DNA of 64,000 bases from sequence record MK327931.1; one strand, 5' to 3'. The translations under genes were made by a program, and so were the position numbers. A model generated the notes under the pieces. The model searched no databases, was not told the origin of the DNA, and worked only from the letters and a program-made list of their open reading frames with translations. Shown one piece after another: positions 24,458 through 24,961 of this stretch. Positions within the stretch are counted from its first letter, which is position 1; each line of letters starts with the position of its first letter. Source of the DNA: Escherichia phage vB_EcoM_G17.

Positions 24458-24961
24458 TTATTTTACTTTGACAGTACAGGTTACCTTTTTACCTTGGAAC
24501 TCGACTTTTTGAACATATGAAACGTTACCCAAACGATTAACGAATGATTCCATTGCATTAATATTTGCTTGAATTACTGATGCATTAGTTCCACGTCCTG
24601 AAGTTTTCATTACAATATGTACATGTTTTCCTTCATCAAGGAATTTTTCAGCACTTTTTGCTTTAATCTGCAAATCATGCTCTTGTGTACCAAAGTTGAA
24701 TTGAATCTCTTTAATACTCACGGCATTTTGTCGTTGTTTTTTAAGAGAAGCCTTTTCAGCTTGCTTCAACTCATATTTGTATTTGTTAAGATCTGTAATT
24801 TTGACAGCAGGTTCATCACCTGCACCAATAACCACCAAATCCAATCCTTGATTTTCTGCTAAAGTAAGTGCTTTAGAGATTGCCATGACCTCACTTGCAC
24901 CTTCCGTAACAAGACGTACAGTTTTTGCGGTGATTTCGTTATTGGCAATAATAGATTTCAT
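24458..24961 (-). CDS. infC: translation initiation factor IF-3 homolog
   Basis: alignable with bacterial IF3 over both domains: [53 protein letters not shown] and [33 protein letters not shown]. Confidence 0.8.

Follow-up and report, generated by a model that had tools for sequence, protein, structure and literature searches.

A conserved initiation factor IF3 homologue with an altered start-codon-inspecting loop in RaK2-like jumbo phages

The stretch of DNA analysed here, referred to as the window, comprises 64,000 nucleotides of Escherichia phage vB_EcoM_G17 (MK327931.1) and carries on its minus strand, at positions 24458..24961, a gene for a homologue of IF3, a translation initiation factor of bacteria. 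The open reading frame (ORF) starts with ATG, ends with TAA and encodes a 167-aa protein that is identical to the products of infC of slurp01 (SCA80538.1) and of Sharanji gp294 (WNN14575.1). Upstream it adjoins a 64-aa ORF (25031..25225, minus strand; PHROG 15132), and 13 nt downstream of it lies a gene for a ClpS-like adaptor (23899..24444, minus strand; PHROG 15940), followed by a gene for a KTSC-domain protein (23282..23827, minus strand), the third gene of a conserved module. The wider order is DHFR, RNase H, Dda-like helicase, a hypothetical ORF, the 64-aa ORF, IF3, ClpS-like, KTSC, structural proteins and topoisomerase II. This arrangement is shared, give or take one gene, by Asteriusvirus, Alcyoneusvirus and Mimasvirus; in RaK2, a Mom-like gene replaces RNase H.

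Membership of the IF3 family is well supported. The protein matches Pfam IF3_N (PF05198) over residues 7–71 (58.9 bits; cut-off, 26.9) and IF3_C (PF00707) over residues 81–165 (51.8 bits; cut-off, 34.8). With a score of 110.4 bits, it also exceeds the threshold of 60 set for the full-length NCBIfam equivalog TIGR00168 infC. Its alignment with PHROG 9787 (‘translation initiation factor’) runs from end to end (E = 6e-71), and E is about 3e-17 for the IF3 chains in solved E. coli and Thermus structures. The original prediction, which was made from the letters of the DNA, was of an IF3 homologue spanning both domains, to be checked against the N- and C-terminal IF3 families; both families are matched, and the Pfam and NCBIfam scores exceed the curated cut-offs. 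All of the motifs that it quoted (VRLV, GLDLV, EIQF and FLDEGKHV) are found in the translation, where they form part of TVRLV, QGLDLVV, KEIQFNF and KFLDEGKHV. We conclude that the gene at 24458..24961 is a genuine, conserved phage IF3 homologue with both domains.

The predicted fold agrees with this assignment. An AlphaFold model for which 33 homologues served as input (mean pLDDT 87.7) has two alpha/beta domains and a joining helix at residues 58–79. In a Foldseek search of the PDB, the model matched full-length, 30S-bound IF3 structures with TM scores of 0.69–0.78, the isolated C domain 1tig with a TMt of 0.84 and the isolated N domain 1tif with a TMt of 0.76. The N-terminal domain (24749..24943, minus strand; residues 7–71, as delimited by Pfam IF3_N) carries R16, S23, K54 and Y63. 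A lysine-rich helical linker (24722..24748, minus strand; about residues 72–80, placed by AlphaFold secondary structure and alignment) connects it to the C-terminal, predicted 30S-binding domain (24467..24721, minus strand; residues 81–165, Pfam IF3_C), which carries D96 and K100. As in E. coli IF3, an acidic N domain is paired with a basic C domain; the isoelectric points, phage versus E. coli, are 5.3 versus 5.5 and 9.56 versus 9.57, respectively.

The gene belongs to a well-populated group of phages. The 4 kb around it are 100% identical to vB_Eco_slurp01 and Sharanji and 96–99.8% identical to PBECO4, 121Q, phAPEC6 and others, and a 20 kb comparison of the window with slurp01 yielded 5 differing positions. 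The phages that match the 4-kb region are jumbo myoviruses of 310–390 kb in the genus Asteriusvirus (RaK2-like). At the protein level, IF3 is 100% identical in 121Q, slurp01, Sharanji, SP27, phAPEC6 and others, and 52–73% identical to the copies in A4, RaK2, GAP32, CBB and XbC2. A tblastn search found the gene in 94 phage records, 86 of which cover at least 80% of the protein. Comparison of sequence pairs (Nei–Gojobori) gave dN/dS values of 0.083 against UE-S1 (dS 0.33), 0.076 against vB_Ec-M-J and 0.17 against A4. IF3 is therefore under strong purifying selection (dN/dS 0.08–0.17), and we rejected the idea of a pseudogene or relic on the basis of the values of about 0.08.

The relationship to the host factor is distant. 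Phage and E. coli IF3 share 38% identity over 120 aa (64.7 bits), and the GC content of the gene is 34.9%, close to the 33.9% of the window; that of E. coli infC is 48.6%. The phage-like composition and the merely 38% identity indicate an old, ameliorated phage gene and no recent capture. Together with the synteny in dozens of phages, they also led us to discard host contamination as an origin. The search for a bacterial donor gave no candidate; the best relatives outside the clade (37–51% identity) are metagenomic proteins, some of them on contigs of 90–620 kb. The notes in the RaK2 and GAP32 records name best IF3 matches from unrelated phyla.

The genes around IF3 had been described in the original prediction as host-like protein-homeostasis genes, a description that holds in part. 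The next gene downstream is ClpS-like and barely passes the Pfam threshold (ClpS, 24.7 bits; cut-off, 23). Its product scores 16–19 bits with the NCBIfam ClpS models (cut-offs, 112–158) and aligns weakly with E. coli ClpS (E = 0.17); the positions of D36, M40 and H66 are occupied by P, A and N, and about 65 additional aa are present at the N terminus. The third gene encodes a KTSC protein (Pfam KTSC, 51.9 bits) and no chaperone, and a GroES-like gene is about 11 kb away from IF3. In some records, the KTSC gene is annotated as DnaJ; the Pfam assignment is KTSC. The ClpS-like gene starts 13 nt past the IF3 stop codon, with no minus-strand terminator in between, so that the two are probably co-transcribed. 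An ORF of 64–66 aa precedes IF3 in every relative examined, and the core of small ORF, IF3, ClpS-like and KTSC genes persists even in the metagenomic relative that has diverged furthest (46% identity), in which other neighbours have changed. In one relative (54% identity), the gene at the ClpS position has no recorded Pfam match.

The original prediction of a dedicated TATAAT promoter was confirmed. A sigma-70-type promoter (TTGACA-17 nt-TATAAT; 25006..25034, minus strand) agrees with the consensus at 12 of 12 positions, lies 44 nt upstream of the IF3 ATG and overlaps, with its −35 element, the stop codon of the 64-aa ORF. Perfect sites of this type occur three times in the window (0.07 expected), and sites with at most one mismatch occur ten times (1.73 expected), all of them on the minus (coding) strand. 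A Shine–Dalgarno sequence, GGAG (24972..24975, minus strand), precedes the ATG by 10 nt. Across the aligned upstream regions of the window phage, A4, RaK2, GAP32 and XbC2 (five phages from three genera), GGAG is invariant and holds its position, as do the −35 element (GCTTGAC; TTTAC in RaK2) and the −10 element (TATAAT, TACAAT or TACCAT), whereas the spacers have diverged. Such retention amounts to a phylogenetic footprint, by which the promoter claim holds, at a position that is conserved in relatives. A second promoter-like site (25230..25202, minus strand; 11 of 12 matches) overlaps the start codon of the 64-aa ORF.

Two features bear on when and how the gene might be regulated. Judged from promoter type, phage IF3 would be expressed early; a point against this is that the phage has an RpoD-like sigma factor of its own. 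In E. coli, IF3 autoregulation depends on the non-canonical start codon of infC (ATT in the gene, AUU in the message); the phage copy has ATG in its place and should therefore escape regulation of the host type. An Rfam search of positions 20000..30000 revealed no L20-leader-like or other regulatory RNA near IF3 at E values of up to 0.1.

To relate the phage protein to residues with reported functions, we used an alignment of the phage clade, the 146 nearest database representatives and E. coli IF3. In the N domain, E. coli R25, which is reported to be invariant among bacteria and touches the elbow of the initiator tRNA (PMC9723500), corresponds to R16. Two further elbow contacts, R66 and Q33, correspond to K54, a conservative change, and S23, an accepted bacterial variant (PMC9723500). 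Also kept are Y75 (phage Y63), the substitution of which by asparagine impairs fidelity in E. coli, and K110 (phage K100), for which K110L abolishes 30S binding (PMC7145577), as well as D106 (phage D96) and G132-R133 (phage G122-R123). Within the clade, R16, K54, Y63 and K100 are conserved in 26–28 of 28 clusters. Loss of conserved IF3 residues had been named as an outcome that would speak against the original prediction; most of the functionally reported residues are retained in the alignment. The other C-domain arginines of E. coli IF3 are mostly lysine in the phage protein, as is expected for an AT-rich genome (34% GC). Non-basic residues appear in the MAFFT alignment at R99 (N) and R147 (S), the latter in a region that aligns poorly. 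Because several E. coli C-domain arginines are non-basic in the phage protein, binding to the E. coli 30S subunit is not guaranteed.

Unlike most residues with reported functions, the loop that inspects the start codon is changed. The E. coli motif, 129-RFRGR-133, is described as highly conserved, with R131 contacting the start codon (PMC11775629). Its phage counterpart is K119-T120-S121-G122-R123 (24593..24607, minus strand), followed by G124, so that neither the central arginine nor the aromatic residue is present and E134 is replaced by G. In E. coli IF3, either R131P or exchange of the motif for the mitochondrial KKGK makes the factor less selective against non-AUG starts, leaderless mRNAs and aberrant initiator tRNAs (PMC11775629). 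The phage pattern extends across the RaK2-like clade: position 129 is lysine in 26 of 28 clusters, position 130 is aromatic in none and position 134 is glutamate in none; position 131 lacks a basic residue in 27 of 28 and is freely variable (V, A, S, T, I, Q, N or E), and G132 and R133 are essentially fixed. For the 87 database representatives with an identity of 35% or more to E. coli IF3, the counts are 79 with a basic residue at position 131 and 69 with E134. A basic residue at position 131 is found in just 4 of the 15 proteins nearest to phage IF3. The IF3 proteins of the phages Atu_ph07 and Phosso retain RFKGRE. From the comparison of the clade with the database representatives and with these two phages, loss of the inspecting arginine is a derived, clade-wide trait, and a degenerate loop is no general requirement for a phage IF3. 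We found no mention of this loss in RaK2-like IF3 in the literature searched.

Loss of the central arginine suggests that the phage factor probably proofreads less stringently, and relaxed proofreading is a plausible reading of the loop. There is, however, no obvious phage need for relaxed fidelity, and canonical start codons count against one. Of the 62 window genes for which Sharanji coordinates transferred in register (9 others, out of register because of indels, were left out), 61 start with ATG and 1 with GTG, and most are preceded by Shine–Dalgarno-like sequences; unusual start-codon usage was not found in this set. A phage initiator tRNA with altered G:C pairs in the anticodon stem, which would be a mycoplasma-like fit to a relaxed IF3, was considered and rejected. 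The window contains no tRNA genes, and the sole tRNA(CAU) of the phage, which is encoded outside it, is 90 nt long, with a long variable arm, a paired 1:72 position and no GGG/CCC anticodon stem. These features identify it as something other than an initiator tRNA.

We consider it fairly probable, from sequence comparison, that the gene encodes a functional IF3 paralogue of RaK2-like jumbo phages that supplements or supplants host IF3 on the host 30S subunit. IF3 would be transcribed from its consensus sigma-70-type promoter together with the ClpS-like gene and probably the KTSC gene as well, and would be translated from an ordinary Shine–Dalgarno-AUG start, free of the AUU autoregulation that limits host IF3. 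The basic C-terminal domain would then bind the host 30S subunit, with the N-terminal domain contacting the initiator tRNA. In this way, the phage factor could raise or replace IF3 activity, keeping subunits apart, recycling the 30S subunit and speeding up assembly of initiation complexes. Such a boost may coincide with the shut-down of host gene expression, during a long infection in which a genome of about 350 kb (about 590 annotated features) has to be expressed. An excess of bacterial IF3 inhibits some messages (PMC11775629); with an RFRGR-type loop that lacks the central arginine, proofreading might be less stringent and the factor might accumulate without becoming inhibitory. Both 30S binding and any effect on fidelity are predictions from conserved and changed residues.

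One rival explanation holds that the phage factor serves to take over initiation, by competing for the 30S platform and biasing initiation toward phage and against host messages, perhaps with the ClpS-like adaptor delivering some host factor to ClpAP. Compatible with this idea are the alteration of the codon-inspecting loop that is specific to the clade, the invariable adjacency of the IF3, ClpS-like and KTSC genes and the presence of a ClpX homologue next to IF3 in Atu_ph07 and Phosso, as well as published models of huge phages in which translation initiation is intercepted (PMC7162821). We nevertheless regard it as unlikely: no feature was found that separates phage from host messages, both of which have an ordinary Shine–Dalgarno sequence and AUG, and the free variation of positions 130 and 131 within the clade resembles the loss of a contact and not a new specificity. 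Moreover, the substrate pocket of the ClpS-like protein is poorly conserved, and the adjacency of the genes may be inherited synteny.

In another explanation, the protein would be a plain spare part, equivalent to host IF3 and of consequence just when host IF3 is limiting, in which case the loop would have drifted neutrally in an AT-rich genome. Most substitutions do replace arginine by lysine, which a GC content of 34% would lead one to expect; moreover, charge and fold are retained overall, and phage genes have canonical starts. Scattered drift does not, however, readily account for a pattern in which K119, G122 and R123 are strictly conserved and positions 130, 131 and 134 are off the bacterial consensus clade-wide, nor for a score against E. 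coli IF3 (64.7 bits) below that of the Atu_ph07 protein (119 bits), and we hold this explanation to be quite unlikely. That the gene does not work at all, being host DNA in the assembly or a decaying relic, is vanishingly improbable given its occurrence in 94 phage records, its conserved neighbours and phage-like GC content, a dN/dS of about 0.08 and its 38% identity to host IF3. A working IF3 paralogue that supplements or supplants the host factor thus remains the reading that we prefer. A bolder reading, which we think improbable, is that IF3 in these phages is proofreading-relaxed and autoregulation-free and belongs to a fixed IF3/ClpS-like/KTSC module that would take the place of host IF3 on 30S subunits, perhaps while the Clp machinery clears a host factor, and would make initiation in infected cells fast and permissive. 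If true, no earlier case of a virus taking over bacterial start-site selection by means of a variant initiation factor would have been demonstrated.

Both the identification of this IF3 and the idea that it redirects translation are already in print. Records of identical genomes call the gene infC or translation initiation factor IF-3, and annotated homologues include RaK2 ORF153, GAP32_313, 121Q gp47, CBB_318, Sharanji gp294, slurp01 infC and a gene of XbC2. The CBB paper (2017) lists IF-3 homologues for GAP32, 121Q, PBECO4 and RaK2 (PMC5259590), Al-Shayeb et al. (2020) present a model of huge phages intercepting translation initiation (PMC7162821), and Iyer et al. (2021) name IF3 alongside the KTSC protein (PMC7824862). 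In 2025, the paper on the Sharanji genome took up the same IF3, with the comment that what it does in phages ‘cannot be definitively stated’ (PMC11895373). All four contain speculation on reprogramming of initiation by phage IF3 (PMC7162821, PMC5259590, PMC7824862 and PMC11895373). The literature searched contained no functional experiments on any phage IF3 and no transcriptomes of RaK2-like phages. As the gene has been annotated and discussed for identical genomes, its detection has little discovery value; what is added here is the hypothesis on the degenerate RFRGR loop and the promoter-driven IF3/ClpS-like/KTSC module. Initiation factors recur in the lists of translation genes of jumbo phages. 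Should phage IF3 work on the ribosomes of the host, it would illustrate the means by which a large lytic phage maintains or remodels initiation once the host has been shut off.

Among known systems, bacterial IF3 (E. coli P0A707; Thermus thermophilus, PDB 5LMN-5LMV) shares with the phage protein R25, Y75, D106, K110, G132 and R133, and R66 is represented by lysine. The phage and E. coli proteins (167 and 180 aa, respectively) both have two domains and a lysine-rich helical linker, but the basic tail with which E. coli IF3 begins is missing from the phage protein. The genomic settings also differ: E. coli infC sits in thrS-infC-rpmI-rplT, whereas phage IF3 has the 64-aa ORF upstream and the ClpS-like and KTSC genes downstream. 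The annotated IF3 genes of RaK2-like phages (PHROG 9787) are the same gene, in the same order, as that at 24458..24961; the window itself belongs to Asteriusvirus PBECO4 or to a phage nearly identical to it.

Altered RFRGR motifs are found in mammalian mitochondrial IF3 (KKGK) and in mycoplasma IF3 (R131 changed to P, F or Y), where they accompany relaxed start-codon or initiator-tRNA rules (PMC11775629). The phage clade shares with these proteins the loss of R131. It differs in that phage IF3 is without the terminal extensions of mitochondrial IF3, and host and phage genes alike use canonical Shine–Dalgarno-AUG starts. Other phage-borne IF3 genes are known from Atu_ph07, Phosso and metagenomic huge phages (Al-Shayeb et al. 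2020; IF1/IF3), in genomes of more than 300 kb, as here. In Atu_ph07 and Phosso, a Clp-system gene adjoins IF3 and topoisomerase II is near, as in the window, but their Clp gene encodes the ClpX ATPase and not a ClpS-like protein. The Atu_ph07 protein scores 119 bits against E. coli IF3 and 85.5 bits against the window IF3, and is thus more similar to the former. These two phages represent a different jumbo-phage lineage, one that keeps the bacterial RFKGRE, unlike the KTSGR of the window.

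The IF3 gene is part of a small module that all RaK2-like genera retain, consisting of a small ORF (64–66 aa), IF3, a ClpS-like gene and a KTSC gene. This module occupies positions 23282..25225 (minus strand) of the window and recurs at four loci of relatives (L003, L004, L005 and L006), as well as at L014 (473–2411) and L017 (4742–6625); at L017 the gene at the ClpS position has no recorded Pfam hit. The module is also intact in a metagenomic relative with an IF3 that is just 46% identical and with different other neighbours, having an inserted Fe-SOD-like gene and a fused topoisomerase II. 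The ClpS-like gene of the window (23899..24444, minus strand) encodes a 181-aa protein that is extended at its N terminus by about 65 aa and has only marginal similarity to ClpS. The pocket residues D36, M40 and H66 of E. coli ClpS are replaced by P, A and N in the HMMER alignment, and classical N-degron binding by this protein is therefore doubtful, judging by sequence.

Beyond the RaK2-like clade, the closest relatives of the window IF3 are metagenomic proteins with 37–51% identity (P0034–P0046 and one cluster), some of which are encoded on contigs of 90–620 kb. Among them is HCJ8468052.1 (192-kb contig), deposited as E. coli IF-3. Most of these relatives, too, lack a basic residue at the position of R131, the arginine with which E. 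coli IF3 inspects the start codon. This suggests a broader family of variant IF3 proteins, probably carried by phages.

The window contains 10 sites that match the sigma-70 promoter consensus with no more than 1 mismatch, compared with 1.73 expected by chance, and all 10 are on the minus strand, within 5114..62468. Three are perfect (6826–6854, 25006–25034 and 38431–38459). Besides the perfect site at 25006–25034, TTGACA-17-TATGAT (25202..25230, minus strand) is a second strong promoter-like site, matching the consensus at 11 of 12 positions. It overlaps the 64-aa ORF's start codon, and its transcript would start within that ORF. The phage has its own gene for an RpoD-like sigma factor, beyond the window (Sharanji gp182). 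About 11 kb from IF3, surrounded by DNA polymerase III-like genes, is a gene for a GroES-like co-chaperonin (13388..13714, minus strand), which scores 24.8 bits with Pfam Cpn10 (cut-off 21.1). Outside the window, the Sharanji tRNA cluster includes a gene annotated as tRNA-Met(cat) (L018, 20374..20463, minus strand), adjoined by a tRNA-Ser with anticodon ACT. The product is not an initiator tRNA but an odd elongator: it is 90 nt long, with a paired G1:C72 and an anticodon stem of GCCGA/TCGGT, and its variable arm is long, as in the type II tRNAs for Ser or Leu.

In the jumbo phages Atu_ph07 (L010, 1173–2995) and Phosso (L009, 1155–3001), of a lineage unrelated to the RaK2-like phages, a ClpX homologue with zf-C4_ClpX and AAA_2 domains is followed immediately by an IF3 gene, and a topoisomerase large-subunit gene is nearby. 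IF3 is thus linked to the Clp system in two lineages, and the component beside it differs, being ClpS-like in RaK2-like phages and a ClpX homologue in Atu_ph07 and Phosso; this linkage may reflect shared ancestry or a functional connection.
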